Assembly (NCBI GenBank): GCA_041661405.1 | Contig: JBAZUL010000002.1 | Location: forward strand, 3,715 to 67,714 | Source of the DNA: Patescibacteria group bacterium | Lineage (GTDB): Bacteria; Patescibacteriota; Patescibacteriia; Patescibacteriales; JBAZCA01 | Length of the DNA stretch: 64,000 bases | Reading direction: 5' to 3' | Part shown: positions 19,536 to 35,126 of the stretch, in pieces | How the letters are laid out: each line of letters starts with the position of its first letter | How positions within the stretch are numbered: the stretch's first letter is position 1 | Program-made: the position numbers and the translations under genes | The notes under the pieces: model-generated | The model's database searches: none | What the model was told of the DNA's origin: nothing | The model's input: the letters and a program-made list of their open reading frames with translations, nothing else

Positions 19536-20366
19536 TTAATGCTCCAAAAATTTCAAAGCGTACATGAGGGATATCCCGATCATGATGAATAAAAACTGTT
19601 TTAAGGATTTTAGCGGGTCGGCGTCTTTTCTAAGTTCGGGAAGAAGGTCGGCCATGGCGATATAAATAAATCCGCCGGCCGCGAGCGGCAGGAGACTCGC
19701 GGAAACTTCTTCCGGCCGGATGCCGACGATTAAGACGACCATCGCGCCGAGAACAGCGGAAAGGGCGGTAAGGAAGTTAAGGGCAATCGCTTTGGTTCGG
19801 TTATATCCGGCGTAGATAAGCACGCCAAAGTCGCCGATTTCCTGCGGAATCTCATGGGCGATAACGGCGACTGTTGTAACGATCCCCAAGGGAAAACTTA
19901 TTAAAAACGATCCGGCGATTACCATGCCGTCAATAAAATTATGGAGGCCGTCGCCAACCAGGTTCATGATCCCGAGATGGTGCGGGTGAGCCGGAGAAGT
20001 CGGGATATGGCAATGGCGCCAGCAAACCAGCCGCTCCAGGATGAAAAAAATAATTATCCCGCCTAAAAACCAAAACCAGGGGATGGTTGAACCGCTGTTT
20101 TCAGAAAGCGCTTCGGGAAGGAGGTGAAGAACCGCGCCGCCGAGCATGGTTCCGGCCGAAAGGCTTACGAGAAGCATTACGGCTTTTTTTAGTTTTTCCG
20201 GCTGAAGGGCGAGTGAAATTACTCCCACAAAGGATATGAGAGAGACGATAAAAACCGCGGCAAGGGAATATATAGCAACCATAGTATTTGCGCGAGGAGT
20301 TAAGTAGATTAAACTTAACAGTATATTAGCATTATTTTTCGTTTTTCGGCAAGCGATTTTTTCCAT
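19536..20366 (-). CDS. zupT: ZIP family metal (zinc) transporter
   Basis: HHLGIMNLVGDGLHNFIDGMVIAGSF signature and multiple TM helices. The true start may be internal (MVAIYSLAAV at 20285). Confidence 0.7.
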   Translation of the reverse strand: MEKIACRKTKNNANILLSLIYLTPRANTMVAIYSLAAVFIVSLISFVGVISLALQPEKLKKAVMLLVSLSAGTMLGGAVLHLLPEALSENSGSTIPWFWFLGGIIIFFILERLVCWRHCHIPTSPAHPHHLGIMNLVGDGLHNFIDGMVIAGSFLISFPLGIVTTVAVIAHEIPQEIGDFGVLIYAGYNRTKAIALNFLTALSAVLGAMVVLIVGIRPEEVSASLLPLAAGGFIYIAMADLLPELRKDADPLKSLKQFLFIMIGISLMYALKFLEH

Positions 20367-20443
20367 TTTTCGGCTTTGACGCGGAGCGGTTTTTAGACTA
20401 TGATGTATTTACTTTAAGACTTCCAATTAAATCGCCCTTTATT

Positions 20444-20812
20444 ATGAAATTAACCGTAAAAATGAGCCAATTGCCGGCCAATCCCGAGCAATTTTTAAGA
20501 AGAGCCGGTTACGGCTATATTGAGGATCGGAGGCGGGGGACAAAAAGCTTTGTCCGGAGGTTAGGAGCCGGGTTTTACCCGAGACTGCATATGTACGCTG
20601 AGCGGGAAGGCGAGAGCGTGTCATTTAATCTCCATCTTGACCAAAAGCAGGCGAGCTACGCCGGAGCGCGCGCCCATAACGCCGAATACGGCGGATCGGT
20701 CGTTTCCGGAGAAATGGAGCGGATAAAAAATTTATTGCTTAACGCGGAACGGGCTGCGCCTGACCCAATTCCGGTCAGGGAAAAGGGATGGTGGAGAAAA
20801 ACATTTAGTTAG
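20444..20812 (+). CDS. Hypothetical protein (GC-richer than its neighbours)
   Basis: ORF only. No recognisable motifs. Confidence 0.3.
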   Translation: MKLTVKMSQLPANPEQFLRRAGYGYIEDRRRGTKSFVRRLGAGFYPRLHMYAEREGESVSFNLHLDQKQASYAGARAHNAEYGGSVVSGEMERIKNLLLNAERAAPDPIPVREKGWWRKTFS

Positions 20813-20819
20813 TTGAATG

Positions 20820-20859
20820 GTTGATTGGTTAATTAGGAATTACTAATTAACCAATCAAC
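20820..20859. promoter_or_regulatory. Perfect 17-bp inverted repeat (GTTGATTGGTTAATTAG-N6-CTAATTAACCAATCAAC) upstream of dnaG
   Basis: The reverse complement of the left arm equals the right arm. It lies 15 bp upstream of the dnaG ATG. Candidate operator or AT-rich hairpin. Confidence 0.4.
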
Positions 20860-20873
20860 TAATTAACCATTAC

Positions 20874-22781
20874 ATGCAGCCTTCTGAGGAGATAAAATCA
20901 AAATTGGATATCGTGGATGTCATCCGCGAATATATACCGCTCCGGCCAGCCGGGATGAATTTTCGCGCCAATTGCCCGTTTCATAACGAAAAGTCGCCTT
21001 CATTCATGGTTTCTTCGGAAAAGCAGATTTGGCATTGCTTTGGTTGCGGCAAGGGCGGCGATGTCCTTTCTTTTGTCATGGAAATGGAGGGGCTAAGCTT
21101 TGTTGAAACCCTTCGGGCGCTCGCTCCCCGGGCGGGCGTAGTTTTAAAGAAGACTGATTCAAAAATTGAGTCTAAACGGAACCGGCTCTTAGACATCCTT
21201 GAAATCTCGGCCGAATTTTACCATGAGGCGCTTATGAGCCGCCCGGAAGCCGAACCGGCTCGCGAATATTTAAAAAACCGGGGATTGAAAAAAGAAACTT
21301 TGGAAGATTGGAAAATCGGCTACAGTTTTGATTCATGGGATCGGCTGTTTCTTTTCCTGAAAAAGAGAGGTTATGAGGAAAATGAAATATTCATGGCCGG
21401 CATGGCGGTGCGGAAAGACAAAGGCGGCGGTTTTTACGACCGGTTCCGCGGCCGGATCATGTTTCCCATAAAAAATTTGAACGGCAATGTCGCCGGATTT
21501 TCCGCCCGGGTAAGTCCGGAAAAAGAAAAAACCGAGGTAATGGGAAAATACATCAACAGTCCGGCAACGCTGGTTTATGACAAGTCAAAAATCCTTTTCG
21601 GGCTCCATAAGGCCAAGATGGAAATAAAAAAGAAAAACTTGGCCATCATTACCGAAGGGCAGATGGATGTCATTACTTCCCATCAGGCCGGTTTTCAAAA
21701 CACTATTGCCTCGTCCGGAACGGCTCTTACTGAAGAGCAGGTAAAGCTCATAAAAAGATACACCCCGAATATCGCTCTGGCTTTTGATTCTGACGCGGCG
21801 GGCGAGATGGCGGCCGAGCGCGGAGCAGGGGAAGCTATGGCGGCCGGCATGAACATTTCGGTCATAGAGGTGCCTTTAGGAAAAGATCCGGATGAATGCA
21901 TAAAAAAAGATCCGGGCGAGTGGACTGGCGCGATTGCCAACGCCAAACCGATTATGCAGTATTTTTTTGACCAGACCTTTTCCCGCCTGGATCCGGATAA
22001 AATTGACGAAAAGCGCGAAGCCGCCGCTAAACTTATCGGCGTAATATCGCGCCTGGAAAATAGGATTGAAGAAGATTTCTGGCTAAGAAAACTCGGGCAG
22101 AAAATTGACGTTCCGGAAAATATTTTAAGGGAAACATTAGCTAAAATAAGGGAAAAACAAAAATCCCGCGAAGAAAAAAGGCCGCTTTCGGGTAATACTC
22201 TAAGACAGGCCGGGAAAATTGAAGAAAAGGGAGTTCTTTCGGCCGGCCGGAAGCCAAGACAGACCCGCGAAGAACTCTTGTCAGATATTTTTTTAGCTTT
22301 GCTTTTAAGGTTTCCGTCGCACCTTCCGCACGCCGTCGGCAACGTAAGTCTTGACTGCCTGGCGCGGAGTTCCAAGCCTATTTACAGCAACCTGATTTTT
22401 TATTATAATAATATTGGAAAAGAACTAATCTTTGAAGCAGACCCGGAGAACCTCAGTAAAATTTTTTACGAGGATTTTAAATGCTGGATCCGGGATCGCG
22501 ACGGCGGTGAAACATGCGATAGTCTTGATTTTTTATCCCTTTTAGGCGAGAGGGATTGTTATCATTTAGGAATTGACGACGCCGGAAAGGAAATACTCCG
22601 GATATCAATTGAGCTGAAAAAAAATTATCTTGCCGGACGGCTTAAGGAAATTGAAAAGCTAATTAGCGCCGCCGAAGCTGAGCCGGATGATTTTACTGAA
22701 AAAGAAAATGAGATGGCGTCACTCCTTAAAGAATTCAGCGAGCTCGTTGACGAAAAAAAGGGAATGGACGCGAGCGATTGA
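20874..22781 (+). CDS. dnaG: DNA primase
   Basis: Zinc-binding CPFHNEKSPSF...CFGCGKGGDVLSF. Toprim motifs (ITEGQMDV, AFDSDAAG). Confidence 0.85.
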   Translation: MQPSEEIKSKLDIVDVIREYIPLRPAGMNFRANCPFHNEKSPSFMVSSEKQIWHCFGCGKGGDVLSFVMEMEGLSFVETLRALAPRAGVVLKKTDSKIESKRNRLLDILEISAEFYHEALMSRPEAEPAREYLKNRGLKKETLEDWKIGYSFDSWDRLFLFLKKRGYEENEIFMAGMAVRKDKGGGFYDRFRGRIMFPIKNLNGNVAGFSARVSPEKEKTEVMGKYINSPATLVYDKSKILFGLHKAKMEIKKKNLAIITEGQMDVITSHQAGFQNTIASSGTALTEEQVKLIKRYTPNIALAFDSDAAGEMAAERGAGEAMAAGMNISVIEVPLGKDPDECIKKDPGEWTGAIANAKPIMQYFFDQTFSRLDPDKIDEKREAAAKLIGVISRLENRIEEDFWLRKLGQKIDVPENILRETLAKIREKQKSREEKRPLSGNTLRQAGKIEEKGVLSAGRKPRQTREELLSDIFLALLLRFPSHLPHAVGNVSLDCLARSSKPIYSNLIFYYNNIGKELIFEADPENLSKIFYEDFKCWIRDRDGGETCDSLDFLSLLGERDCYHLGIDDAGKEILRISIELKKNYLAGRLKEIEKLISAAEAEPDDFTEKENEMASLLKEFSELVDEKKGMDASD

Positions 22782-22794
22782 TATTTAAAAAAAA

Positions 22795-24075
22795 ATGGCA
22801 AAGAAAAAAAACAACTTCAAAAAAGTTAAAAAAATTTTGAAGAAGGCCGTTAACAATAAACCTCAAAAAAAGAAGGCTGTTTTTCGGCCGGCTAAGAAAA
22901 AGCCGTTTAAGCCTGGAAACATAAAAAAATTATTTTCCCGGACAACGAAGCCGGTGATAAAAAAAAGGGTGATTGAGGTTTTACCGATAAAGTTTCCCGG
23001 AACGGATGACATGAAAAAGCTCATAGAAAAAGGCCGGATGCGCGGATTCGTAACCGAGACCGAGCTGATTTATGTTTTTCCTGAAATTGAGGAATATGTT
23101 TTTGATTTTGAACTTTTTCTGGAATTATTGCAGAAAAACGGCATCCGCATCGTTGAATCGCCAAGGGGATTTCTTGAGGTCGGGCCGAAAAAAACCGAAA
23201 AAGAAATAAAAGCCGAAGAAAAATTAAAGATTGACCTGGCCGGACTCCACAGCGTTGATTCAATCCAGATGTACCTTAAGGAAATCGGCAAAGTGCCGCT
23301 ACTCACCCAGGAAGAGGAGGTTGAGCTTTCCAAGCGCAAGGAAAAAGGCGAAAAGGAAGCCGAGCGCCGGCTCATAGAAGCGAACTTAAGGCTCGTTGTT
23401 TCCATTGCCAAGAAATTCGTCGGCGCCAAAGGACTTTCGCTTTTGGATTTAATCCAGGAGGGAAATATCGGCCTTTTTCGAGCGGTGGAAAAATTTGAGT
23501 ACCGCAAAGGCTACAAATTTTCTACCTACGCCACCTGGTGGATCAGGCAGGCGATTACCCGGGCTTTAGCCGACCAGTCGCGGACGATTCGCATACCGGT
23601 CCATATGGTTGAGACTATTAACCGGTTCCAGCAGATAGAGCGGCAGTTAATCCAGGATCTCGGGCGCGAACCTTTGCCCGAAGAAATCGCCGCCGAAATG
23701 AACGAGGAAATTGACAAGGTGCGGCATATAATAAAAATCTCCCAGGATACAGTATCCTTGGGGACGAGCGTGGGCGAAGATGAAGACGATTCAACTTTAG
23801 AGGATTTTATTGAAGACGTAAAAAACGTAACTCCGGATCGGACCGCGGCTTTGAGCCTCTTAAAAGATTATGTTAAGCAGGTTATTTCGGATCTTTCCGC
23901 CAGAGAGCAGAAAATTTTAGAAATGCGCTTCGGATTGGCGGACGGCGTTACCCATACTTTAGAAGAAGTCGGCCAGGAGTTTGACGTTACCCGGGAGCGG
24001 ATCCGTCAGATTGAAGCCAAAGCCCTGGAGCGGATCCGGCGGCACGCTCAGATAAAAAAATTACAGGATTTTTAA
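22795..24075 (+). CDS. rpoD: RNA polymerase sigma-70 factor with Lys-rich N-terminal extension
   Basis: Regions 2 to 4 are present: [32 protein letters not shown], and region 4 [27 protein letters not shown]. Adjacent to dnaG, forming the classical operon. Confidence 0.9.
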
Positions 24076-24081
24076 AATTAA

Positions 24082-25488
24082 TTGAATAATACCATGCGAA
24101 GATTCCCCATGCTTTCGCTACTCATGGTAGCGACTCTCCTTTCTTCTTACCCCGCGCCAGTAATGGGCGAGGAAAATCTTATTTCAACTGCTGGCGACGA
24201 CTCGTCCGTCTCGGTTGAAGTTACAGCCGAAGATACCGGGCTTACCGTTGAGGCGACAAATAACGCCGCTACCGAACAAACCGAAGCCCTTGAAACAACC
24301 GGCGCTATGATTGAAATCGGCAACACGACTGCCGAAAGCACGACCGTTGTCGTTCGCCTGCCGGACGGAGCGGGCGGCACAACCGATGAGACCCTGGAAA
24401 TAAGCCGGGCGACCAGTCTTATCAACGGCGTTGGCCAAAAGACGTCGCTTGATGATTGGATTGCCGGCGACCAGCTTAAGTTCAGCGCTTTAAAAAACAA
24501 AAACAGCGGAGAAATAATCGCCAAAAAAATCGCGAATCTGGCCATGAAAAAAGGCTATAAAGGCGCGAACGGCTGGATTAAGGAAATCCGAGCTGATAAA
24601 AACGAGGTGGACGTTATTTACGGAAAAGTGATTTACACGCTTGACGTTTCCGGCGCGAAAATGGTGGCCGGCTTAAAAAATCCGGCGGCTATTACGGACT
24701 TAAAAACAGGCGACCGGATCAGGGCGAGAATTACCGAAGATAATGACGGAAACGGTCTTACCTGGGACGCGAAGACGCTCGTGGTTCTGCGCCGCGGGGA
24801 GACCTTATTCATGAAAGTAAGTCGCTGGGTAGTGCCGGGAAAAATCGTTAGTCTGCCGGATGATTTGTCCGTGACGGGCGGGGTAATGGTAATAGAAATT
24901 TTAGCCAATAAGTTTTACCAAAAAGGCGATGTCAATAATTTAATCGGCGAACCGGGCGAAAAATTGGAAGTGCTGGTTGACGAGAAAACTCAGCTTCGCC
25001 GGAAATTCATGGGCAAGTGTCTTTTAGGCGAATTTACCGAAGGCGATACAGTCCAGGTCTTAGGCCGTTTAAACGAAACAACCGGCCAGCTGGACGCGAA
25101 AATGATCCGGGATAATTCCATCCAGAAATTAGGTGTCGCGACCCGGGTGGCGAAAATCAACAGCGTCAACACAACGAACAATACCCTCACCGCTGTTTAC
25201 GGTAATAATAAAAAAGAGTTTACTGTCACCTTAGCCAAAGACGGAAAAGTGTACGAGCGGACAGTTGCCAATACTGAAGACGCCAAATCTGTTACGCTCA
25301 CAACAATTAATTTTTCCGATCTGGTTTCAGGAAGAAGAATCAGGATTAGGGGAGTAGCCAATAAAAGGAACGCGGCCATAACCGCCCAGGCGATAGTTAT
25401 GTTGCCGGAACAGTCAAGCGCGGATGGCAATCAGAACGATGACAGTAATACGCAAGAAAATTCCGATAATTCCAATTCCGGCCAGTAG
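24082..25488 (+). CDS. Secreted hypothetical protein with internal about 110-aa repeats and a Gln/Asn/Asp-rich C-terminus
   Basis: Signal peptide (MRRFPMLSLLMVATLLSSYPAPVMG). No recognisable catalytic motifs. Confidence 0.4.
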   Translation: MNNTMRRFPMLSLLMVATLLSSYPAPVMGEENLISTAGDDSSVSVEVTAEDTGLTVEATNNAATEQTEALETTGAMIEIGNTTAESTTVVVRLPDGAGGTTDETLEISRATSLINGVGQKTSLDDWIAGDQLKFSALKNKNSGEIIAKKIANLAMKKGYKGANGWIKEIRADKNEVDVIYGKVIYTLDVSGAKMVAGLKNPAAITDLKTGDRIRARITEDNDGNGLTWDAKTLVVLRRGETLFMKVSRWVVPGKIVSLPDDLSVTGGVMVIEILANKFYQKGDVNNLIGEPGEKLEVLVDEKTQLRRKFMGKCLLGEFTEGDTVQVLGRLNETTGQLDAKMIRDNSIQKLGVATRVAKINSVNTTNNTLTAVYGNNKKEFTVTLAKDGKVYERTVANTEDAKSVTLTTINFSDLVSGRRIRIRGVANKRNAAITAQAIVMLPEQSSADGNQNDDSNTQENSDNSNSGQ

Positions 25489-25522
25489 CTCCTTTGCCTA
25501 AAAAGATTATTGAAAGCAGAGA

Positions 25523-25553
25523 AGGGGAGAGGCTAAAATCTCTCCCCTTTAAT
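25523..25553 (+). terminator. Intrinsic terminator after the secreted-protein gene
   Basis: GAAGGGGAGAGGCTAAAATCTCTCCCCTTT: a GC-rich 8-bp stem followed by T's. Confidence 0.55.
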
Positions 25554-25559
25554 TAATTA

Positions 25560-25588
25560 TTGACTTTTAGGCGGGTATTTATTAATAT
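25560..25588 (+). promoter_or_regulatory. Sigma-70-like promoter for tRNA-Asn
   Basis: -35 TTGACT (25560-25565), 17-nt spacer, -10 TAATAT (25583-25588). It lies about 30 nt upstream of the tRNA. Confidence 0.5.
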
Positions 25589-25618
25589 ATGGTTAGTGCC
25601 AAACAGGCATTTTTTTAT

Positions 25619-25693
25619 TCCCGGGTAGCGCAGCGGTAGCGCAGCTCGCTGTTAACGAGTTGGTCGTCGGTTCGAATCCGACCCCGGGAGCCA
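25619..25693 (+). tRNA. tRNA-Asn (anticodon GUU)
   Basis: Manual fold: acceptor UCCCGGG/CCCGGGA. D-arm GCGC-AGCGGUA-GCGC. Anticodon arm GCUCG-CUGUUAA-CGAGU. T-arm GUCGG-UUCGAAU-CCGAC. Discriminator G, then an encoded CCA. Confidence 0.9.
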
Positions 25694-25781
25694 GATAAGA
25701 AAAGTTCTAAGCGACCCCTCCCTGTCATATTGCTTAAACAGGGAAGTAACTAAAAATAAAATAAAAAGTTAATAATTAAGT

Positions 25782-26141
25782 TTGACTAACATGCAATCAA
25801 GCGAATTGGCGGATAGGGTCTATTCAATTTTGAAAGAACGAGCCTTAATAAATCAGCCAATTTTTTATGGTGAATTATATAAAATGGTTGGGCTTGATCA
25901 CGGTAAAGTGGTTGATAGGAGTAAGGGTAGTGAGTTGCTAGAATCCGCAAATATTATAAGTGGTGAGGATTATATGATTTCCTCTTTTGCGGTAAGTAAG
26001 GAAGCAAATGGCCCTTACCACGGATTTTATGTTTTAGCCGAAAAATGGGGCAGAATTAAGCACGGATTAACCGAGCAGGAGAAAATGGTTTTTTGGGTGG
26101 AAGAAATGAAGAGAGTCCATAAAAAATGTAATAAGCTATAG
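25782..26141 (+). CDS. Hypothetical protein (first gene of the low-GC island)
   Basis: ORF with AT-rich codon usage that differs from the upstream genes. No motifs recognised. Confidence 0.3.
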   Translation: MTNMQSSELADRVYSILKERALINQPIFYGELYKMVGLDHGKVVDRSKGSELLESANIISGEDYMISSFAVSKEANGPYHGFYVLAEKWGRIKHGLTEQEKMVFWVEEMKRVHKKCNKL

Positions 26142-26184
26142 AATTTGAGAAAATTATGGAAATGTCATTAATTTTTTTAGTTAT

Positions 26185-26874
26185 ATGCATTTAGAAAGAT
26201 TTGATAGTTTTTTACAAACAGTGCCCTTAAAAGACTATAGGAAAAAATATAGTAGCATTAAAATTGTTGAGATGGATTTGCCTAAAGATATACAAGCAAT
26301 TAATCTTTTATATAAAGTCTATTGGGAGGAAAATAAATTTATTTCCTTTGAAAAATTTTATAAGAGATATTCAGAAGAAAAAAAGGAGTTACTCGAGAAA
26401 TTTAGAAAGAAAACAACAATGTGTAAAAATTGTTTCTATCGCGGAATAGAAGCAAGGACTTACAGGACCTGGGCTGGGTTAATAACCCAAATCCATGGCG
26501 GATATGTTGCCGAGTCTGTCTTTGGCAAAGGAACCGTAAGCATGTCAAGAGAATTAGACTCTTTGGGAGCCGATATAAGAGTTAAGTATAGAGACGATAT
26601 TTTAAATTATCAGGTTAAAAAAACGAGTTTTAGCGGAGTAATGAGCAGGGTTCCGCTTCCAAGAAAAAAGAAGACAGAAGGGGAAAATATTGACATAAAG
26701 TATGAAGTGCCTGCTTGTTTATCTGACCCAAAAACAAAAAAGGGAGAATTTAGAATACCATATTTGAGATTTTTAGAAGACAAGCGAATAAAGGCATTTA
26801 GCAACGGTTTTGTAGTTTTTACTCCTTACATTTTTGTAAGCAAAAAGAAAGAAATAGACAAAAGTTTAAAATAA
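26185..26874 (+). CDS. Hypothetical protein, candidate PD-(D/E)xK-type nuclease partner of the methyltransferase
   Basis: Possible D...(E/Q)xK arrangement (LGADIRVKYRDDILNYQVKK). Convergent with, and overlapping by 9 bp, the LexA-MTase gene. Weak. Confidence 0.25.
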   Translation: MHLERFDSFLQTVPLKDYRKKYSSIKIVEMDLPKDIQAINLLYKVYWEENKFISFEKFYKRYSEEKKELLEKFRKKTTMCKNCFYRGIEARTYRTWAGLITQIHGGYVAESVFGKGTVSMSRELDSLGADIRVKYRDDILNYQVKKTSFSGVMSRVPLPRKKKTEGENIDIKYEVPACLSDPKTKKGEFRIPYLRFLEDKRIKAFSNGFVVFTPYIFVSKKKEIDKSLK

Positions 26875-28398
26875 TTTTGGAATATATTTTGTATTATTTA
26901 GTATATGGTTAGCGATTTTAATATATTCAGGATTTATCTCAAAACCAATAAAAGATTGTCCTAATTCTTTCGCGGCAATACATTCAGAACCAGAACCAAC
27001 AAATGGCACCAACACGATGCCATTTTTTTGTGGCATTGCGGATTGAATTAATTTTCGCGATAACTCCAGCGGTTTTTGGGTGGGATGCTTTATAATATTA
27101 TGATCCTGATGTTTTTTGAGTTCTTTTGGCGAATAAATATTATTACAATCTTTGCATAAAAAATATCTTTCAGACATTCCAGCTCCTCCGGCCAGAGCGG
27201 GAATTTTTAATACATCTCTAGGGAGCGCGCCGTTCTCATGAGCATTATAAACTGTTTCTTTTCCGCTACTGCTAAAACGACCGGCGGTAGCCGCTCTTAT
27301 TTTACCCGCGGCCCCATTTAAAAATCCTTCGGTGTATGGTTCTCTAACTTCATCTCTATTAAAAATTGGTTGTTGTTTCCAGGCGCAAATAATTGCCTCA
27401 TGGCTTCTTTGCCAAAAATTTAAAGAAGCGACATTTTTATTAGTATAATGCCAGATGAGCCATCTTTTCGGTAAAGAAATTTCTACTGATAGATAAGCCA
27501 AAATTTCGCTAAAGCCGTAAATAAATATTGTTCCGTTTGGCTTCATTACGCGAATACATTCATTTATCCATTCATTACACCAAGCGATATATTCTTTTAA
27601 TTCTCTTTTGTCGTGATTATTACCGAAATCTTTGCCTATGTTGTAGGGCGGATCAGCGACGACGACATCGCAACTTTCGTCAGGAAGTTTTTTTATTTCG
27701 TTTATAACATCGCCACAAATGATTTGATTTAATGGTAAATTTTTATATTGTATTGTTTGTTTTTTTTCTGTCTGTAATTCGGGCGTTACATTTTTAATGA
27801 CATCAATTACAATTCCTTGAATCATTAAATTTTCCGGTTTAACATATATCGGGCTTATTCTTAAATTCGCCGGCTGTAAACGAATCCTACCTTTTTCTTT
27901 ATAGATTTTTTTTAGCGTTGCTTCGCTATTATCAATTAACGCTACAATTTTTTGTCCGTTAACCGCCGTGGTTTGACTTTTAATTATTACGATGTCTCCA
28001 TCGTTAATGTTTTCTCCGATCATACTGCTACCGCTTACGCGCAAGGCAAAAAGATCGGCTGATTTTGGTAAGTTAATTTTAGGCACGGCGATTGTTTCTC
28101 TTTCTTCTATCGCTTCAATTGGTTGCCCAGCGGCTATTGTGCCTTTTAATGGAATTTGGATAAAGTCATCTATTGTTTTCTTAATTTCTATACCCCTTGA
28201 TGAGTTTTCATTTTTTATTAAATAATCTTTATTTATCAACGCTTCAACATGTTGATGCACCGTAGAAAGCGCGGAAAGTTTAAATCGTTTCTTTATTTCT
28301 TCGTAAGTAGGGGATATACCACTTTTTTTAATATATTCAGCAATGAAGTCTAAAATTTGTTTTTGCCTTTTAGTTAAAGTTTGCATAGTGTTTGACAT
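26866..28398 (-). CDS. Fusion protein: LexA-like S24 autopeptidase repressor (wHTH + Ala-Gly/Ser/Lys peptidase domain) fused to a beta-class N6-adenine/N4-cytosine DNA methyltransferase
   Basis: N-terminus TKRQKQILDFIAEYIKKSGISPTYEEIKKRF matches the LexA wHTH. Cleavage-site-like IAAGQP. RVSGSSMIGENINDGDIVII (Ser) and ATLKK (Lys) mark the S24 peptidase. Then motif IV VVADPPYNIG, followed by C-terminal HPTQKP and FVGSGSE (motif I). Motif IV before motif I indicates a beta-class amino-methyltransferase. Confidence 0.7.
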   Translation of the reverse strand: MSNTMQTLTKRQKQILDFIAEYIKKSGISPTYEEIKKRFKLSALSTVHQHVEALINKDYLIKNENSSRGIEIKKTIDDFIQIPLKGTIAAGQPIEAIEERETIAVPKINLPKSADLFALRVSGSSMIGENINDGDIVIIKSQTTAVNGQKIVALIDNSEATLKKIYKEKGRIRLQPANLRISPIYVKPENLMIQGIVIDVIKNVTPELQTEKKQTIQYKNLPLNQIICGDVINEIKKLPDESCDVVVADPPYNIGKDFGNNHDKRELKEYIAWCNEWINECIRVMKPNGTIFIYGFSEILAYLSVEISLPKRWLIWHYTNKNVASLNFWQRSHEAIICAWKQQPIFNRDEVREPYTEGFLNGAAGKIRAATAGRFSSSGKETVYNAHENGALPRDVLKIPALAGGAGMSERYFLCKDCNNIYSPKELKKHQDHNIIKHPTQKPLELSRKLIQSAMPQKNGIVLVPFVGSGSECIAAKELGQSFIGFEINPEYIKIANHILNNTKYIPKLF

Positions 28399-28470
28399 TA
28401 TTTATCCACATGTTATATTTATAGTATATACCGAAAATTTACCGAAGTCAAAAATATTTTATAATTAATT

Positions 28471-29988
28471 ATGGATAATTATTCATTATACAAACCGCTG
28501 AAAAATCATTTAGGAAAACTTAGCATAAATGAATCATTTTATGTGATATGGGCTTATTCAAACCATTTGCAATTTGGAAATTCATTTCCTTCTGATATCG
28601 AGACCATACCAGAATTTATTAATGCAAAATCTTTACCTGAAAAAAAGATCTATCAATGGGAATTAGAACTTTTATTACGAGAGATTATAATTAATTCTCA
28701 AGATATTGAAAGAGGATTAAAAACATTAAGAAAATGGAATTATTTTATAGGTGCTATAAACAAAATAAAGGATATTGAAAATAAATTGATTTCTGTCAAC
28801 AAGAATAATGTTTTAAAAGAATTTTTTAGGCTAGCCCATAGACAGTTTCCGTGGCAACTGAATATAAATCTCATGTACTTTTATAGATATTATAGAATTT
28901 TTAATGAAACGGACATTGATAAAATACTATATAACAAAGTCGGCATTCACTACGAGAATTTATTTTTAATGGGAACGTCGTTGCTTGGCCATTTTCAGAA
29001 AAATTTTATTATTAAAGAACCATTCAGCACGAATATAAAAGGTATAGCTAATAATGAGGTAAAAAAATTATTTGATATGATTTCAGTTGAACTAGATGAT
29101 TTTAAAAAAATTATACAAAAAGAGCATACTGTTGATGAAAAATTTGCCTATAATACTTACATATTGAGATTATATCCGATAATAAAAAATAAATTTAAAG
29201 GAGATAATACATATTTTTGTCCTTTGACCACTTTATTGTATTGGCGATTTACCAGCGGAATATATTATGAAATTTGCCGTGAAAAAGATTTTGATAATCC
29301 TTTCGGATATGCTTTTAAAAAATATGTTGGGGACGTTTTAAATAAAGCTAATAAGAAAATGACTATTTACCCCGAAGAATATTATGGTTCAAAGAAAAAT
29401 AAAAAGAATACGGTTGATTGGATATTAGATGAAAAAGACGCCGCCCTATTTATTGAATGTAAGACAAAAAGGTTAATAGTACCGGCAAAAATAGAATTAA
29501 ATAATACAGAATTTTTAGATAAAGAACTAGAAAAAATTTCTGATGCAATAGCTCAGGTTTATAAAACCATAAAAGATCATATTGATAAACAATACCCAAG
29601 TTTTTCGTATGACGAAAAAAGGAAAATTTATCCAATTATTTTGACATTAGAGGAGTGGTATTCATTTCCTGACCCAATTAGTCAAGAAATAAATAAAAAA
29701 GTTAAAGAAAAATTTAATCAAAATGGACTGCCTCTTAAATGGTTGGAAGAAATGCCTTATTCTATATGTGGTATTCATGAATTTGAGGAAATTGTTCAAA
29801 TAATACAAACCGTGGGCATTAAAAAATTTATGGAAAGTAAGTTTTCAACCCCTGAATATGCAAGTTGGGATTTAGGCCCCTTCGTAAATTCTTTTTATAA
29901 AGAAGAAAGAAAAAGCGCGATATTTTTATTCCAAAAAGAGTTTGATGATATGTTAAGCGCAAGAGGTTGCCCGGTCATCAATCATTGA
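28471..29988 (+). CDS. Hypothetical 505-aa protein with a PD-(D/E)xK-like motif, candidate restriction endonuclease or other nuclease
   Basis: VDWILDEKDAALFIECKTKR contains a D...ExK arrangement typical of the PD-(D/E)xK core. Divergently transcribed from the LexA-MTase gene. Confidence 0.3.
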   Translation: MDNYSLYKPLKNHLGKLSINESFYVIWAYSNHLQFGNSFPSDIETIPEFINAKSLPEKKIYQWELELLLREIIINSQDIERGLKTLRKWNYFIGAINKIKDIENKLISVNKNNVLKEFFRLAHRQFPWQLNINLMYFYRYYRIFNETDIDKILYNKVGIHYENLFLMGTSLLGHFQKNFIIKEPFSTNIKGIANNEVKKLFDMISVELDDFKKIIQKEHTVDEKFAYNTYILRLYPIIKNKFKGDNTYFCPLTTLLYWRFTSGIYYEICREKDFDNPFGYAFKKYVGDVLNKANKKMTIYPEEYYGSKKNKKNTVDWILDEKDAALFIECKTKRLIVPAKIELNNTEFLDKELEKISDAIAQVYKTIKDHIDKQYPSFSYDEKRKIYPIILTLEEWYSFPDPISQEINKKVKEKFNQNGLPLKWLEEMPYSICGIHEFEEIVQIIQTVGIKKFMESKFSTPEYASWDLGPFVNSFYKEERKSAIFLFQKEFDDMLSARGCPVINH

Positions 29989-30067
29989 TTTATAATTTTA
30001 GTTTCAAAAGTAGATATGAATAAAAAAGAATTTGCCGCCAAATTGCCCCGCAGATGCGGAGCGGAGC

Positions 30068-30203
30068 GGGCTTTGCCCGCGGGGAAATCATTGCTTTTAA
30101 AAGCGGGGGCTGCGGGCGCTTTTAAAAGCTTTTTATAAAATAGTTTTAAACCTTTTTTTTAAATTCAATTTGAGCTTCGGCGTAAAATCGGAGCCAATAA
30201 AAA
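30068..30203 (+). repeat. Direct repeat copy A (about 135 bp) in the 3' UTR of the 505-aa gene, containing a promoter-like TTAAAT-18-TAAAAT
   Basis: Aligns at about 85% identity with 33641-33750 (GGGCTTTGCCCG...AAAAGCTTTTTATAAAATAGTTT...AATTCAATTYGAGCTTCGGCGTAWAATCGGAGCCAATAAAAA). Followed by its own terminator hairpin at 30204-30231. Confidence 0.6.
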
Positions 30204-30321
30204 TCAAGGCTAACATTGGCCTTGATTTTTTGTACCCAGGGAAGGAGTTAGAACCTAAGTAAAAAATTGACACTTGATGAATAGTTGGATACTCTTAGAA
30301 TAGATAATAACTCAGGAATAT

Positions 30322-31317
30322 ATGAAAGAAATATTAGATAATCCCTTGGAGCAATACCAAGAAATAGAATCTAAGACTGCTAAAAATGAAAATAAAAAAG
30401 AAAAGTGGACAGCAAAAATACGGAAAGCGTTGAGTATTTTTATTGCTACCGGCTTAGTTACTCTTTCCGCCGATCCGGTTCTTGACTCAAAAATTTATTT
30501 TAATGAAAACCATATAGGTAAATTTATTGAATATACGGGAGAAGATAATGAAATCAAGCAGCTGGAAATGGAATATAGGCTTAAGGAGTTGTGCGAAAAA
30601 TATTCAGTTAACATTGTAGGCTTTCTTAAAACGGCGGATGAAGGAGCAAGAGAAAATCGGGAAAAAGAAAAAGGGCCGTTAAAAGTAGAAGGATTTGAAT
30701 CTTTGGGCATTTTTAATGAAGATCTAAAAGAAATGTGGGATGAGACATATCCAAAGAACGCTTTAAATGAAGTTTCCAGAGTTGCTTATATATCCAAGTC
30801 TAAGCAGAATGTAGGGGATTATAATATATCAGGACAGATGATGGCGGCTGGAACGAATATATTAAGCAATGAAATAACATTTTTCAAAAGTTTAGAGGGC
30901 CACTCAAAAAAGAAAGACATAATAGGGACTGCGGATTGGTTTTTTAGTCATGAGCTTGGTCATATGAATGATTGGGCCCATACTGACAATTTAACGCCAG
31001 AGGAAAGAATAGAGTTTTTGCAGGAGGTAACACAATCATTTCTTATGGAAGGGTCGTTTAGAGATGTGTTAGGATATGTAGATTCGATAAATAATCCAGA
31101 CCAGCAGAAACAATTATTTTACAAAGTTGGAGAGTATTGGGCGGGTTTATGTGAATATTATTTTACTTTCCCCGATATTCAATTCAATAGCTTGGAGACG
31201 GCTTTAATTGAAAAATGGTTATTGAAGGGTGAAAAGTTTGATAACTTGGCAATGAAAGAAAAAAGAGTGGGCTATGTAAAAAAAATGCTTGAAACTAACT
31301 ATTATGATAAAAAATAG
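30322..31317 (+). CDS. Putative zinc metallopeptidase-like protein (HExxH)
   Basis: One TM segment near the N-terminus and an HELGH motif (FFSHELGHMNDWAHT). No further family assignment. Confidence 0.35.
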   Translation: MKEILDNPLEQYQEIESKTAKNENKKEKWTAKIRKALSIFIATGLVTLSADPVLDSKIYFNENHIGKFIEYTGEDNEIKQLEMEYRLKELCEKYSVNIVGFLKTADEGARENREKEKGPLKVEGFESLGIFNEDLKEMWDETYPKNALNEVSRVAYISKSKQNVGDYNISGQMMAAGTNILSNEITFFKSLEGHSKKKDIIGTADWFFSHELGHMNDWAHTDNLTPEERIEFLQEVTQSFLMEGSFRDVLGYVDSINNPDQQKQLFYKVGEYWAGLCEYYFTFPDIQFNSLETALIEKWLLKGEKFDNLAMKEKRVGYVKKMLETNYYDKK

Positions 31318-31819
31318 TAAGCTTTTTAGTTTTTTGTTGATTTTACCGTTGTTTATTTTAATCCTTGGCGGTTGCGGCAAAAGCGCTTCGGAGATAGCGG
31401 GCGAAAAAGCGGCTGAAAAAAATATAGAAAACCAAACGGGAGGCCAAGCTAATGTTGACATAAATAACGGCAGTATAAAAATTGAAGGTAGTCTGGGTAA
31501 GATTGAATCCGGCGATAATGTAAAATTGCCGGCATATTTCCCCGACGATGTTTATGTCATTGAGGGTAAAATAATTACTGCATTTTCCAACCAGGCTGAT
31601 AAAAGCATTACGCTTTCTATTGACTCCACCGCGAGCATAAAAGAAGCGTTTACTATATATCAAGAAAAATTAAAAGCCACCGGCTGGCTGATTACCGGAA
31701 TAATGAATTACGGCGATTCCGCGAATGTGATAGCCGAAAAAGATAAGCGCACAGCTTCAATATTTATGAATAAGAGTGGAGATAAAATAAGCGTAGTTCT
31801 TGTTATAGCGGAGAAATAA
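31289..31819 (+). CDS. Lipoprotein of unknown function
   Basis: Signal peptide with lipobox ILGGCGKS. 176 aa. Confidence 0.4.
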   Translation: MKLTIMIKNSKLFSFLLILPLFILILGGCGKSASEIAGEKAAEKNIENQTGGQANVDINNGSIKIEGSLGKIESGDNVKLPAYFPDDVYVIEGKIITAFSNQADKSITLSIDSTASIKEAFTIYQEKLKATGWLITGIMNYGDSANVIAEKDKRTASIFMNKSGDKISVVLVIAEK

Positions 31820-31874
31820 TTTAATTGAGCAGTTCGGAAAAGCTTAAATTTAGTTATTTTTTTTAATAATTTAT

Positions 31875-33572
31875 ATGACTAAGCTGAAAAAAATTAGCCT
31901 CATAATTTTAATAATTGTTACGGCGGCGGGATTTTTTTTATTAATATCATTAAGATCTTTTATCGGATCGGAATTTTTAGGAGTATTAAAAGAAGAGCTT
32001 AGTAAAAAAATGTCAGGTTCGCAAACCGTGGGGCAAGTAACCGCTAACCGCAACGCCGGCAAGTTAAGCATTGCCGAAGTAACTGCGCCGGAATGGAATC
32101 AAGCCGCGCTTTCCCCGGTTATCGGCCAAGCCTATAAAATAGAACGATTAAAAGATGATAATAAGCCCGTAGCCGTAGAGTTTACTTATAACCCGGCTGA
32201 AATAGGCAAAGGAATTCCGGAATCGTCTTTGCGCCTGTTTAAGTGGCACAGTAACGGCAAGAACGGTTTCTGGTCGTTCGTGCCTAGTACGGTAAATACT
32301 GACCAACATGTAGTAACTGCCAGCCTAACCTCGTTTTCAATTTTAGCCGTGCGCGCCCCGCTGATATATTATTTTAGTCCTGAAGAGGTCGGGGAAATCA
32401 ATAATGATTTGCAAAGATTAACCAAAGAAGTTCCGGCCGATACCTGCGGTATAATAATCATCGTTGACGAGGAACTGATTGAAATGAAGGATGGAGAAAA
32501 AATGGAAGATTATTCACGGCCTTTTAGCGAACGTGAAGAGTCTCACGATTGCATAAAAAATCCTAGTAATATTCCCCCGGTACGCCACGCCAGTATTTCT
32601 AAGGAGCGCGAACAGTCCTGGAATAATGAGCAGACGCGCTATGTTAGCTATTTCGTTAATGCAGATGTATTATGGCAAAGAGATCATGAAGAAAGCGTGG
32701 AAATAAAAGGTGCGGTGGTAAATCAAAAGAATAAACCGCTCGAGGGGGTTAATCTGGTTGCCAACAAACAAAACTATAGCACCGCACAAAAAAAGGCCAC
32801 TACGGATAAAGATGGAAAATTTGAGCTTAATTTGCACTCCGGAGAATACGCGTTAAAAATTACACCCGGCAGTAAAAATAAAAATTGTGCTGGTACCGAT
32901 TTTACGGAAAAATTTTTTGAATTCGGCACCTTGCCGGATGACTTGGATAATAAGGGGCAAGAAACTTACCGGCATGGGCCCTGGGATAAAACCATTACTT
33001 TGCAATGCTCGGAATATTATCTTGATGAAACCCTGCAATTGCCGATTAATTCCTCCGTATCGGGCATAAACGTAAAAGGCACGGAAAGCGCGCATATTAC
33101 CGGCCAATTAACTCAGCCAGCTTCCGGCGGCTACGGCTGGGAAGGCGTCTGGGAGATAGACCATGAGGTAAAGACCGAAATAAAAACCAGCGGCGTTATG
33201 AGTATTATGGGCGGCACTATCGCTATGCCCGAGGGAGCCAATCAAACACAGGGCCTTTATAAATATAAAATAAGAATACCGCTGGGCGCCAAAGCCGGAG
33301 ATACTTTTGCCGTTAGCGGCGCTTGGGTCGGGGCTAATTATAAAAGTTCAACGCAAACCAGCGCCGGCAATATGAATACTACGGCTAATGGCGGCCAAGC
33401 TTCGTGGGATATTGGCTCTAGTTCGACAAACGAGCAAAATGGTAAAAATATGCCTATTAATCGCGCTGGCCGGGTTGTATCAGTAGACGGCGAAAACGGC
33501 TTGACCATAGAATTGATATCAAATATGGCTAACGATTTGCCGAAAGTAAAGATAAAACATCAGGCAGAGTAA
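31875..33572 (+). CDS. Secreted/TM-anchored hypothetical protein with a carboxypeptidase-regulatory-like beta-sandwich segment
   Basis: N-terminal TM segment. Segment GAVVNQKNKPLEGVNLVANKQNYSTAQKKATTDKDGKFELNLHSGEYALKITPG resembles CarboxypepD_reg-like domains. Confidence 0.35.
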   Translation: MTKLKKISLIILIIVTAAGFFLLISLRSFIGSEFLGVLKEELSKKMSGSQTVGQVTANRNAGKLSIAEVTAPEWNQAALSPVIGQAYKIERLKDDNKPVAVEFTYNPAEIGKGIPESSLRLFKWHSNGKNGFWSFVPSTVNTDQHVVTASLTSFSILAVRAPLIYYFSPEEVGEINNDLQRLTKEVPADTCGIIIIVDEELIEMKDGEKMEDYSRPFSEREESHDCIKNPSNIPPVRHASISKEREQSWNNEQTRYVSYFVNADVLWQRDHEESVEIKGAVVNQKNKPLEGVNLVANKQNYSTAQKKATTDKDGKFELNLHSGEYALKITPGSKNKNCAGTDFTEKFFEFGTLPDDLDNKGQETYRHGPWDKTITLQCSEYYLDETLQLPINSSVSGINVKGTESAHITGQLTQPASGGYGWEGVWEIDHEVKTEIKTSGVMSIMGGTIAMPEGANQTQGLYKYKIRIPLGAKAGDTFAVSGAWVGANYKSSTQTSAGNMNTTANGGQASWDIGSSSTNEQNGKNMPINRAGRVVSVDGENGLTIELISNMANDLPKVKIKHQAE

Positions 33573-33640
33573 TTTTTTTACAAAAGCGCCTTGTCGCGGC
33601 AAGCGGTGTCAGGATAAAGAATTTGAAATCGCCCAAAGCC

Positions 33641-33750
33641 GGGCTTTGCCCGTGGGGAATTTTTGCTATTAAAAGCTTTTTATAAAATAGTTTCAAATCT
33701 TTTTTTGAATTCAATTCGAGCTTCGGCGTATAATCGGAGCCAATAAAAAA
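33641..33750 (+). repeat. Direct repeat copy B, with TTGAAT-18-TATAAT promoter-like hexamers, followed by a terminator hairpin (33751-33775)
   Basis: See copy A. Copy A carries an extra 22-bp internal duplication. Confidence 0.6.
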
Positions 33751-33857
33751 CCTCGCCATTGCGGCGGGGGTTTTTGTAATAACAGGGCAAGAGTATTTTA
33801 TGCGCATGGCGGGTATTTAATGCTTGAGCTGCCGGTTTGCCTGCTCGTCCCGCAGGT

Positions 33858-34406
33858 TCACCTCAATTCCGTAGCGTTCGCGCGTCTAAACAACAGCGCC
33901 GATATGATGAATAGCATGGCGAAAAACGCGTTTATAGCGAACACGCCAATAACGCCCGCCTCGCCCCAGGAGGCTTTGGCTGGCCAGACAGAGAGCGCGA
34001 TTATCGGGATTAGGATTTGAACCAGTGCTGCCGAAAACAATGTTCGCGCCATTCCGCGCGGCTTAAAGCGGGAGATAAGGGAACCGATGAGTCCGACGGT
34101 AAATACGGCTCCATACATCAAGTTGGCGGGATTGTTCTCGCTTCCGATAATACCAACGGCGCCGTTCGCCCAAAAGAGGAGGAAGGCTCCCGCAAGCCCG
34201 ATGCCAAAAGCAAAACGGTACGTACTGCTTCGCGTCTTTAGATATTGCCATAATTCATAAGCGCCGCCAGCGGCCAGCAGTATGACGCTATAAGCAATGG
34301 CTTCATTCCACTGCACTTCGTTAGTAAACCGCATTGCCAGAGGGATTATCAATATAAGCCCCGCGATAACAACCCATATAATCTGTCTTTTTGTCATGTT
34401 TAGCAT
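33858..34406 (-). CDS. Polytopic membrane protein (third gene of the DUF2975/HTH module)
   Basis: About 5 TM helices. The start is placed at the internal Met, because the longer ORF overlaps the upstream HTH gene. Confidence 0.4.
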   Translation of the reverse strand: MLNMTKRQIIWVVIAGLILIIPLAMRFTNEVQWNEAIAYSVILLAAGGAYELWQYLKTRSSTYRFAFGIGLAGAFLLFWANGAVGIIGSENNPANLMYGAVFTVGLIGSLISRFKPRGMARTLFSAALVQILIPIIALSVWPAKASWGEAGVIGVFAINAFFAMLFIISALLFRRANATELR

Positions 34407-34417
34407 AATAATATTGA

Positions 34418-34633
34418 TTAGATTTTTTTGTCGCTTTGGTATTCCAGTAATTCTCCGGGCTGGCAATTTAAAGCCTTGCAAATCGCTTCCAGGGTCGTAA
34501 GCCTAATCGCTTTGGCTTTTCCGTTTTTCAGTATGGAAACATTAGCCATGGTTATGCCGACTTTTTCCGTTAGTTCAGTAACGCTCATTTTCCTTTTCGC
34601 GAGCATTACGTCAATATTGATTATAATTGCCAT
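34418..34633 (-). CDS. XRE-family HTH transcriptional regulator (YozG-like)
   Basis: 71 aa. MSVTELTEKVGITMANVSILKNGKAKAIRLTTLEAICKALNCQPGELL is the typical YozG-like HTH pattern. Confidence 0.7.
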   Translation of the reverse strand: MAIIINIDVMLAKRKMSVTELTEKVGITMANVSILKNGKAKAIRLTTLEAICKALNCQPGELLEYQSDKKI

Positions 34634-34637
34634 ATTT

Positions 34638-35126
34638 TTAAACAGTTAAATCATTTTCAGACTTAATATCTACGGCGCTTTGCAAAAGTCTTTCAAAAAC
34701 GGCCGCGGCAGTAGCGACTACGATGGAAATAAAAATCAAAACAAGACCTATCATCACGCCACCCGCGATGTCCTCCTCCACTCTGCGCGCCACAACATTG
34801 ATATATCCTTCGGCTCCCACTAGAAAAGCGACAATGATTATCGCGCAGTATTTTATAGTCCTTAAGGCTTTTACGGCGCCTCCCGAAAATACCTCGTTCC
34901 GCCCTATGTACCGGAGCAGTTTAAATGCTTGAAAAAGCGCCACGAAAAAAGCAATGGAGCCGATGTATATATACGCCAAAAAGGGATCATCAAAATATAT
35001 ATCGTAGAGCGTGGTGGCGTGTGCGTTTACGCCCTCAACGCGAGGCTCCCAAAGCATAAGGCCAAAAGCGCCGATGCCGATGAGAATAATGACTGCCTGA
35101 AGAAACATTGTTGATCCTCGTTTCAT
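34638..35126 (-). CDS. DUF2975 family membrane protein
   Basis: Four TM helices with the DUF2975-typical pattern. Precedes the YozG-like HTH, which is the usual gene pair. Confidence 0.55.
   Translation of the reverse strand: MKRGSTMFLQAVIILIGIGAFGLMLWEPRVEGVNAHATTLYDIYFDDPFLAYIYIGSIAFFVALFQAFKLLRYIGRNEVFSGGAVKALRTIKYCAIIIVAFLVGAEGYINVVARRVEEDIAGGVMIGLVLIFISIVVATAAAVFERLLQSAVDIKSENDLTV

Follow-up and report, generated by a model that had tools for sequence, protein, structure and literature searches.

An AT-rich defence island beside a tRNA-Asn gene of a Patescibacteria group bacterium, probably the remnant of an integrative element

Background

The genomes of Patescibacteria (candidate phyla radiation, CPR) are tiny, and little has been charted of the mobile DNA and the defence systems that they contain. 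Here, a stretch of 64,000 nucleotides from a Patescibacteria group bacterium (GenBank assembly GCA_041661405.1, contig JBAZUL010000002.1, positions 3,715 to 67,714), hereafter called the window, was analysed with respect to an AT-rich block behind its tRNA-Asn gene and to the two copies of a repeat found in and beyond this block. The block carries restriction-modification genes and is probably what is left of an integrative element. By its RpoD and the flavoprotein encoded downstream, the window falls into Patescibacteria, the best hits being Parcubacteria/Falkowbacteria-like. Positions are those of the window unless a contig of a related bacterium is named, for which labels of the form L016 are used.

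Genes and features of the locus

ARAGORN and Rfam (RF00005, 69.7 bits) agree on a single tRNA-Asn(GTT) gene at 25619-25693 on the forward strand, the putative integration target. Its last seven nucleotides, GGAGCCA (25687-25693, +; located by string search), are the candidate left copy, on the attL side, of a common attachment (att) core. Right after this gene, the GC content drops from about 0.45 to 0.28-0.36, in line with the shift to AT-rich sequence that a preliminary description had stated. In 1-kb steps, GC amounts to 0.43-0.50 before the gene, to 0.32, 0.36, 0.29, 0.28, 0.36 and 0.34 across 26001-32000 and again to 0.44-0.48 from 32001 onward. The block 25694-~31299 has a GC of 0.324, compared with 0.445 in the remaining window. 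In a crude set of open reading frames (ORFs), the five in 25694-31320 lie below the other 50 in GC (Mann-Whitney p = 5.5e-6) and in GC at third codon positions (GC3; p = 4.3e-5), with z values of the inserted ORFs from -1.8 to -4.1; composition is thus not uniform. The AT-richness had been described as continuing through seven genes. This applies to the first part of that range only, since low GC stops near 32000 and the gene of a 565-aa protein further on has an ordinary GC (0.438, z = -0.3).

The first gene of the block encodes a 119-aa hypothetical protein without a family match (25782-26141, +). Next come a TaqI-like Type II restriction endonuclease (26185-26874, +; Pfam PF09573 RE_TaqI, E 2.6e-29; PADLOC REase_II, E 3.5e-25) and a LexA protein with helix-turn-helix (HTH) and S24 peptidase domains fused to an N6/N4 DNA methyltransferase (26866-28398, -; Pfam PF01726, PF00717 and PF01555; TIGR00498 lexA, E 1e-50; N6_N4_Mtase, E 4.6e-41). 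These two genes are convergent, with 3' ends overlapping at 26866-26874, and provide the adjacent endonuclease and methyltransferase of a Type II restriction-modification pair. The fusion to LexA suggests that restriction-modification may be under damage- or signal-triggered control. In the limited literature set searched, no description of LexA-methyltransferase fusions was found.

The next gene encodes a 505-aa protein (28471-29988, +) that matches the NCBIfam model NF047931 antiphage_GapS1 only, with an E-value of 2e-25 and 89.6 bits, which does not reach the curated cut-off of 320. It is therefore regarded as a candidate distant relative of GapS1, a single-protein PD-(D/E)xK anti-phage system (bioRxiv 10.1101/2023.03.28.534373). 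A D…ECK motif (DWILDEKDAALFIECK) was picked out by eye, unaligned, in this protein, whose gene has 27.8% GC. A single-sequence AlphaFold2 model reached a predicted local distance difference test (pLDDT) value of only 36, too low for use. With the TaqI-like enzyme, the LexA-methyltransferase and the distant GapS1-like nuclease candidate, the cargo is defensive.

Behind the cargo lies copy A of the repeat (30025-30196, +; nhmmer E 5e-47). From 5' to 3' it consists of a fragment of a recombinase gene (30025-30042), GC hairpins, two GCTTTTAAAAGC palindromes (30093-30104 and 30118-30129), an AT-rich tract, a -35-like TTAAAT (30159-30164), a -10-like TAAAAT (30184-30189) and the core GGAGCCA (30190-30196). 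Past the core, AATAAAAA, a hairpin (30204-30225) and a T-run occupy 30197-30231 (+) and are homologous to the flank past the second repeat copy of L014 (window 30146-30244 corresponds to L014 7436-7534, 83%). A gene for a 331-aa HExxH protein follows (30322-31317, +) and has its own promoter-like site. The protein has no family match, and no homolog was found by tblastn in any fetched relative locus; a relocated homolog of the M10 peptidase of L016 was ruled out in the same search. Further downstream are a lipoprotein gene (31304-31819, +), the gene of the 565-aa secreted protein with a CarboxypepD_reg domain (Pfam; 31875-33572, +) and copy B of the repeat (33616-33742, +; nhmmer E 5e-38), in which one palindrome is deleted. 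Copy B contains a -35-like TTGAAT (33705-33710) and a -10-like TATAAT (33729-33734) and ends in GGAGCCA (33736-33742); AATAAAAAA and a bidirectional hairpin terminator (33751-33770) occupy 33743-33775 (+).

Only these two copies occur in the window. Their aligned blocks are 88-95% identical, somewhat more than the 85% estimated before, and a 32-nt core occurs exactly twice, compared with no such occurrence in 100 shuffles. The repeats had been placed at 30068-30203 and 33641-33750 with a length of about 135 bp; they are real, extend further 5' (to 30025 and 33616) and end at GGAGCCA (30196 and 33742). The described promoter-like pair, TTGAAT/TTAAAT-18-TATAAT/TAAAAT, was seen in both copies, each followed by its own hairpin and T-run. 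The hairpins are unrelated between the copies, and the flanks past the copies are otherwise homologous to each other. While the hexamers fall into the roughly 45 bp beside the core, which is the most conserved part, the hairpin-terminators lie beyond the core and outside the conserved sequence. What had been read as a 22-bp internal duplication in copy A is the family state, as two GCTTTTAAAAGC palindromes are present in the consensus and one of them is missing from copy B through a deletion of about 26 nt.

The AT-rich block as an insertion

The contigs L016 and L017 match the window through dnaG, rpoD, a 463-aa gene and tRNA-Asn, with 74-86% nucleotide identity in the core genes. About 105 nt past the tRNA, they continue with the lipoprotein gene, a 566-aa gene, an M10 peptidase and a flavoprotein. 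By blastn, window 20050-25693 is collinear with L016 1-6227 and window 31300-33572 with L016 6332-8632, and the tRNA gene is 100% identical (window 25617-25693, L016 6151-6227). Divergence begins one base past the tRNA-Asn end …GGGAGCCA, and the tRNA is left whole. Since L016 is collinear up to this end and resumes at the lipoprotein gene, the inserted DNA is 25694-~31299, that is 5.6 kb missing from the empty site of L016, and the AT-rich block is an insertion relative to that site. It has two parts, 25694-30196 with the cargo and copy A, and 30197-31299 with hairpin A and the HExxH gene. As a side observation, L016 holds about 250 extra GC-rich, hairpin-rich bases (5899-6150) between the promoter region of its tRNA-Asn and the tRNA itself, which are missing in the window.

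The proposal of an insertion at a tRNA gene is thus backed by synteny with a relative without the island. Its extent has to be corrected from 25619-33800 with seven genes to 25694-~31299 with five. The lipoprotein gene is the first gene past tRNA-Asn in L016 and is present in L014, at 68-69% identity to both; the 565-aa protein has 80% amino-acid identity to its counterparts in these two relatives (tblastn). Both proteins lie outside the insertion and are conserved residents of the tRNA-Asn locus. Homology to L016 and L014 sets in again at the right edge of the insertion, and copy A ends about 1.1 kb short of this edge; copy B lies 3.5 kb beyond A, past two genes that the relatives also carry. 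The two copies therefore do not bracket the secreted and protease-like genes as one island unit.

No recombinase domain was found by Pfam in the island proteins, and a tblastn search with six large serine recombinases (LSRs) found no recombinase gene anywhere in the window. For this reason, the window is considered to hold a remnant and not an autonomous element.

The repeat as a module ending in a tRNA-like core

Exact-pattern scans of genome and metagenome collections and a subsequent nhmmer profile search gave 22 copies of the repeat, hereafter called the module, on 14 contigs of related Patescibacteria; one of them, in L023, was identified by eye alone. When 19 copies are aligned, homology stops sharply at one column, …TAAAATCGGAGCCA, after which there are at least eight unrelated sequences. 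Past …G(A/T)GCCA, the copies lose homology to each other. This boundary resembles the end of a tRNA: tRNA-Asn ends in …CCCCGGGAGCCA and the module in …ATCGGAGCCA. The window modules are 92-95% identical to the L013 copy, compared with 68-72% for rpoD and dnaG between the same two genomes, which argues for horizontal spread of the modules.

A genome-wide ubiquitous repeat, which had been one of three options offered for the repeats, does not fit this distribution. No module copies were found in the ~20-kb loci of L010, L012, L016 and L018, and most copies adjoin a recombinase gene, restriction-modification cargo or the tRNA-Asn locus; exceptions are the short contigs L004 and L007 (copy 2), which show only secreted-protein or unannotated neighbours. 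Att-like sites fit best among the three options. From a short L007 copy, the repeat unit could have been taken to be no more than the promoter core; this idea was ruled out as the copy is truncated by an IS3-family insertion. There was no exact-core match in IMG/VR and no blastn match to the module in phage and plasmid collections, and a phage or plasmid origin was rejected accordingly. No description of this element family was found in the limited literature set searched.

A junction of this kind is found in L014. Its stretch stops short of the tRNA, and an element running from an LSR gene to RusA fills the space upstream of the lipoprotein gene. Between this element and the lipoprotein gene sits module copy 1, which ends in …CCGAGCCA. 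The sequence past it, CGTCGCATGCGCCTGTCTTTGGCAGGCGTTTTTTAATTATG…, equals CGTCGCATGCGCCTG(T/C)CTTTGGCAGGCGTTTTTTAATTATG…, that is the flank behind tRNA-Asn in L016, with few substitutions up to the start codon of the lipoprotein gene, and the hairpin past the module is the native terminator of the tRNA. From this sequence match, the junction is the one that would be expected at the far end of an element integrated at the tRNA end. In the window, GGAGCCA occurs at 25687-25693, 30190-30196 and 33736-33742, as would be expected of an att core directly repeated at a far junction. No duplicated tRNA 3' segment had been noticed before; one exists, with a length of 7 nt at the end of each repeat, and because it is so short, its significance rests on the L014 junction.

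Further junctions agree with this assignment. In L006 and L023, tRNA-Asn ends in …GGGAGCCA or …GGAGCCA and is directly followed by the 3' end of an LSR gene. In L020, a tRNA-Trp ending in …CCCGTGCCA is followed by the LSR 3' end, and both modules end in …TCTGTGCCA or …TCTGTGCTA, not in …TCGGAGCCA; the core of this tRNA-Trp-integrated variant is GTGCCA. A strict rule that the module core always equals the target tRNA was also considered and fails for the internal copy of L022.

The position of copy B, behind the 565-aa gene, is occupied in relatives as well, by a module in L014 (7434-7486) and by a remnant in L016 (8680-8730), in each case after the 566-aa gene. Copy B therefore predates the split of these three genomes. 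Direct arrays of outward-pointing modules with genes for secreted or membrane proteins between them are present in L005, L007 and L014; such arrays would be the expected product of tandem accretion at one att site.

Intact relatives

Synteny of L010, L012 and L013 with the window stops at tRNA-Asn, L014 has the LSR…RusA element described above in the corresponding space, and the content differs in each of them, which makes this tRNA an integration hot spot in the clade. L012 carries phage-like genes there, and in L010 and L013, LSR genes overlap the tRNA-Asn 3' end. These two LSRs (L010 11439-13217, 581 aa; L013 7352-9016, 543 aa) overlap the 3' ~40 nt of the tRNA and are only about 30% identical, so several recombinase lineages use tRNA-Asn. 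The LSRs of the relatives carry Resolvase, Recombinase and Zn_ribbon_recom domains. A census of their homologs gave 7,845 proteins at E <= 1e-40 among 8,000 candidates scored.

A common order is found in L003, L005, L006, L020, L021 and L023. A CCA-ending tRNA is abutted by an LSR gene reading toward it, followed by an internal module copy directed toward the start of the LSR gene, an Xre-type HTH gene and a restriction-modification system; a DUF4238 protein is often present. The methyltransferase is either LexA-fused or of a RadC-fused C5 type accompanied by Vsr. An outward-pointing terminal module copy ending in the core was found in L003, L005, L020 and L021, and both window copies are of this terminal type. 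An LSR abutting the 3' end of its target tRNA is thus present in the relatives and, as no LSR was found, absent from the window.

LexA-methyltransferase fusions with a restriction enzyme adjoin modules as cargo in L003, L021 and L023; in L007, only a LexA-domain ORF is visible beside the module because it runs off the contig. The coordinates of the LexA-type ORFs are L003 2417-5107, L021 7361-8806, L023 7271-8764, L007 9318-end and L006 5537-6142. The methyltransferase partner varies between the N6/N4 type and an 896-aa protein, the C-terminal part of which was judged Eco57I-like by eye, without a family scan. The accompanying restriction enzyme is TaqI-like, ScaI-like or Endonuclease_7-like, and the LexA part of the window protein is 58-67% identical to those of L007 and L003. 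In L002 (1814-3592) and L005 (1542-3221), C5 cytosine methyltransferases carry a fused RadC (JAB-like) domain, and these loci also encode a restriction enzyme and a protein that resembles, by eye, the very-short-patch-repair endonuclease Vsr. With this RadC-methyltransferase set, the same element family has another form of restriction-modification cargo.

The surroundings of the LSR genes show additional structure. Inverted repeats of about 85-95 nt, both with a tRNA-like core at the end, lie on either side of the gene (L002 4164-4276 and 5700-5815; L009 4328-6462; L013 13800-15400; L020 9357-11443), and the inverted copy upstream of the start codon duplicates about 70 nt of the LSR 3' end. 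A perfect 24-nt inverted repeat, AAAAAAGAAAAGTTTGCTTTTGGC…GCCAAAAGCAAACTTTTCTTTTTT, encloses the internal module unit. The 5' edge of the module, TAAAG, is joined in every copy to a fragment of the LSR gene, in terminal copies to sense nt ~83-120 and in internal copies to the reverse complement of nt 138-157 (window 30025-30042 and 33616-33633; L009 6597-6616; LSR nt 83-157 correspond to L009 5730-5656). Between the two fragments, the intact gene has a 17-nt hairpin whose changes are compensatory (GCCTCC…GGAGGC compared with GCCTCG…CGAGGC).

Interpretation and alternative explanations

The block is probably what remains, without the recombinase, of an integrative element with the 3' end of the tRNA as its insertion site, the repeats being att-bearing end modules. 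The element would have inserted by site-specific recombination at the last bases of tRNA-Asn (…GGGAGCCA). In its intact form, an LSR gene would lie against the tRNA 3' end, followed by defence cargo, usually restriction-modification and often with a LexA-fused methyltransferase, and a module of ~130-190 bp with GGAGCCA at the far end. The tRNA would stay whole after insertion, and the module with its core would mark the far junction (attR). The window would have kept the cargo and end module A and lost the recombinase, so that the element could not move on its own. Judged by the relatives, the insertion may have been catalysed by an LSR, and the crossover would be placed within GAGCCA. A circle junction of the window island would read module…GGAGCCA followed by GATAAGAAAAG. 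tRNA genes have been described as targets (PMC12884075), and so has tandem accretion of integrative elements (PMC5357655, citing Pavlovic 2004 therein).

Accordingly arranged, the locus would consist of two units. The first would run from tRNA-Asn…GGAGCCA through the 119-aa protein, the restriction enzyme, the LexA-methyltransferase and the GapS1-like protein to module A…GGAGCCA. The second, with hairpin A, the HExxH and lipoprotein genes, the 565-aa gene, module B…GGAGCCA and hairpin B, would be older or ancestral. Copy B is most likely either the end of an older insertion, in which case tandem accretion may have taken place at this locus, or an ancestral module.

Several observations weigh against this explanation. 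There is no recombinase in the island or the 64-kb window. Copy A is followed by another hairpin and the HExxH gene and lacks the native tRNA flank that L014 and L016 show; the presence of both before the lipoprotein gene needs an extra event, and no single-step history could be reconstructed. The tRNA and the module have only 6-7 nt in common, so the att assignment rests on comparative junctions and not on a long duplication. In L022, the LSR adjoins tRNA-Tyr (…CCCACCA), but the internal module ends in GGAGCCA. A similarity of 25694-25740 to the arm at the LSR 3' end was obtained pairwise (p <= 0.002), but was not recovered by the nhmmer profile. Finally, the explanation accounts neither for the inverted internal copy of the module nor for the pieces of the recombinase gene at the module 5' edge.

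Alternatively, the repeats could be a portable promoter or regulatory cassette whose match to the tRNA end is incidental, which is considered unlikely. Such a cassette would combine an UP-like AT tract, the -35 and -10 hexamers and upstream palindromic operators, perhaps bound by the LexA-type domain of the methyltransferase, and would drive downstream secreted-protein operons or the recombinase gene. The near-consensus hexamers with 18-nt spacing in both copies agree with this, and the -10 region is among the best conserved columns. Moreover, internal copies lie directly upstream of the recombinase gene and point toward it, same-strand genes come after the copies in the window, L005 and L007, and the palindromes of L021 and L022 occupy the same position with a different sequence. 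However, a strong hairpin and T-run follow within ~10 nt of each window copy, the HExxH gene has a promoter-like site of its own, and copy B faces convergent genes and has nothing to drive. In L023, the -10 is lost (CATATC) while the core and the TTCG block are kept. A promoter cassette alone leaves the L014 junction and the core of the Trp variant unexplained. The promoter-like pair may nevertheless be active, as promoter and att roles of the module are not mutually exclusive.

The features that an end module alone does not cover, namely the inverted repeats around the LSR gene and the LSR fragments at the TAAAG edge, suggest a second recombination reaction. On this basis, the module could be a two-sided platform that recombines with tRNA 3' ends at its 3' edge and allows serine-recombinase cassette exchange at its 5' edge, a reading for which the chances are rather poor. 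The defence cargo, that is the LexA- and RadC-methyltransferase sets, would then be swapped between two inverted modules. If true, this would amount to an integron-like platform in Patescibacteria that is based on a different recombinase.

A small non-autonomous transposable repeat, similar to miniature inverted-repeat transposable elements (MITEs) or repetitive extragenic palindromic (REP) sequences and only coincidentally close to the tRNA, is a very unlikely source of the repeats. The multi-copy family with its high similarity across genomes and the perfect 24-nt inverted repeat around internal-type copies are what such an element would show. The window copies, however, have neither terminal inverted repeats nor target-site duplications, for which reason a MITE was rejected. 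In addition, the 64-kb window has only two copies, which both lie less than about 8 kb from tRNA-Asn, the four ~20-kb relative loci have none, and the 3' boundary is the tRNA-end core, followed in L014 by the native tRNA flank.

It is highly improbable that the repeats are a small RNA or a conserved element of the 3' untranslated region ending at the downstream terminator. Each copy does lie between an upstream stop codon and a terminator hairpin, and local hairpins are predicted. However, the repeats gave no Rfam match, whether the gathering threshold or E <= 1 was applied, the folding z-scores are just -2.5 and -1.9, and the consensus fold of eight diverse copies has -3.5 kcal/mol, 5 pairs and a covariation term of 0.3. 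Furthermore, the terminators are unrelated between the copies, and conservation peaks in the unstructured 45-nt block beside the core.

Least probable of all is that the block is ancestral and was deleted in L016, for although there is only one clean empty site (L016/L017, essentially one contig in two samples), the block is strongly deviant in GC and GC3, its defensive cargo has no homologs in any relative's locus, five relatives have five different contents at the same tRNA, and the tRNA-end core bounds the block on both sides.

Implications and other features of the window

With the remnant of an integrative element as the favoured explanation, the island is real, smaller than proposed and immobile, and the repeats are element ends and not brackets of secreted-protein genes. 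Together with its relatives, the locus would define integrative elements of tRNA 3' ends that move restriction-modification and anti-phage genes among these bacteria. The module ending in GGAGCCA provides a junction signature for locating such islands in fragmentary metagenome assemblies, and the modules supply candidate att-site pairs for LSRs targeting tRNA ends. The fusion of a LexA-type repressor to a methyltransferase is a recurrent cargo and not a one-off.

Some further observations were made in the window. A second variable spot lies between the 565-aa gene and the flavoprotein gene, with the content change starting at the module core. It holds a 207-aa membrane protein, HTH_26 and DUF2975 in the window (33858-35126, -), DUF4153, HTH_26 and DUF2975 in L014 (7544-9799) and the M10 peptidase in L016 (8789-9862). 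An AdoCbl-II (cobalamin) riboswitch aptamer at 13399-13495 (-) scores 40.4 bits, above the Rfam gathering threshold. The ORFs 53629-54030 and 39470-40498 have an island-like low GC (0.336 and 0.357; GC3 0.25-0.27) and may be further small acquisitions.

Comparison with known systems

The locus is ordinary in kind, a decayed tRNA-anchored defence island from a serine-recombinase family in Patescibacteria whose architecture is unusual in some respects. It shares with Correia/NEMIS-type MITEs a short intergenic repeat with promoter-like hexamers and terminators after it; here, the family is not dispersed, and the window copies lack terminal inverted repeats and target duplications. Direct repeats of about 120-135 bp between small gene sets of the same orientation also recall integron attC sites and the Vibrio cholerae repeat (VCR). 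An attC reading was rejected, as there is no tyrosine recombinase such as IntI and the repeat ends lack the R''/R' GTTRRRY cores; in contrast to attC, the repeat is not one imperfect inverted repeat and has a boundary that matches a tRNA.

As in defence islands and mobile restriction-modification cassettes, a Type II pair and a GapS1-like gene are found in horizontally acquired DNA. The difference here is that the methyltransferase is fused to a full LexA-like repressor and peptidase. With LSR elements (phiC31/Bxb1-type integrases, TnpX of Tn4451 and Ccr of SCCmec), the family has in common the recombinase domains of the relatives, a recombinase gene beside the att site and a very short common core, which is consistent with the dinucleotide crossover of LSRs. 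Unlike these elements, the family targets the CCA end of a tRNA gene, has a second, inverted end module upstream of the recombinase and ~85-95 nt inverted repeats around its gene; the window itself has no recombinase gene.

In organization, the locus resembles the tRNA 3'-end islands of the ICESt1/CIME type and the Islander/TIGER type, with which it shares an intact tRNA, a core repeated at the far junction, cargo that varies between strains at one tRNA, and recombinase-less remnants beside newer arrivals. In most islands of these types, a tyrosine integrase is used and tens of bases of the tRNA are duplicated. In the present family, tRNA and module have only 6-7 nt in common, the intact relatives encode large serine recombinases, and the module adjoining the core is both long (130-190 bp) and highly conserved.

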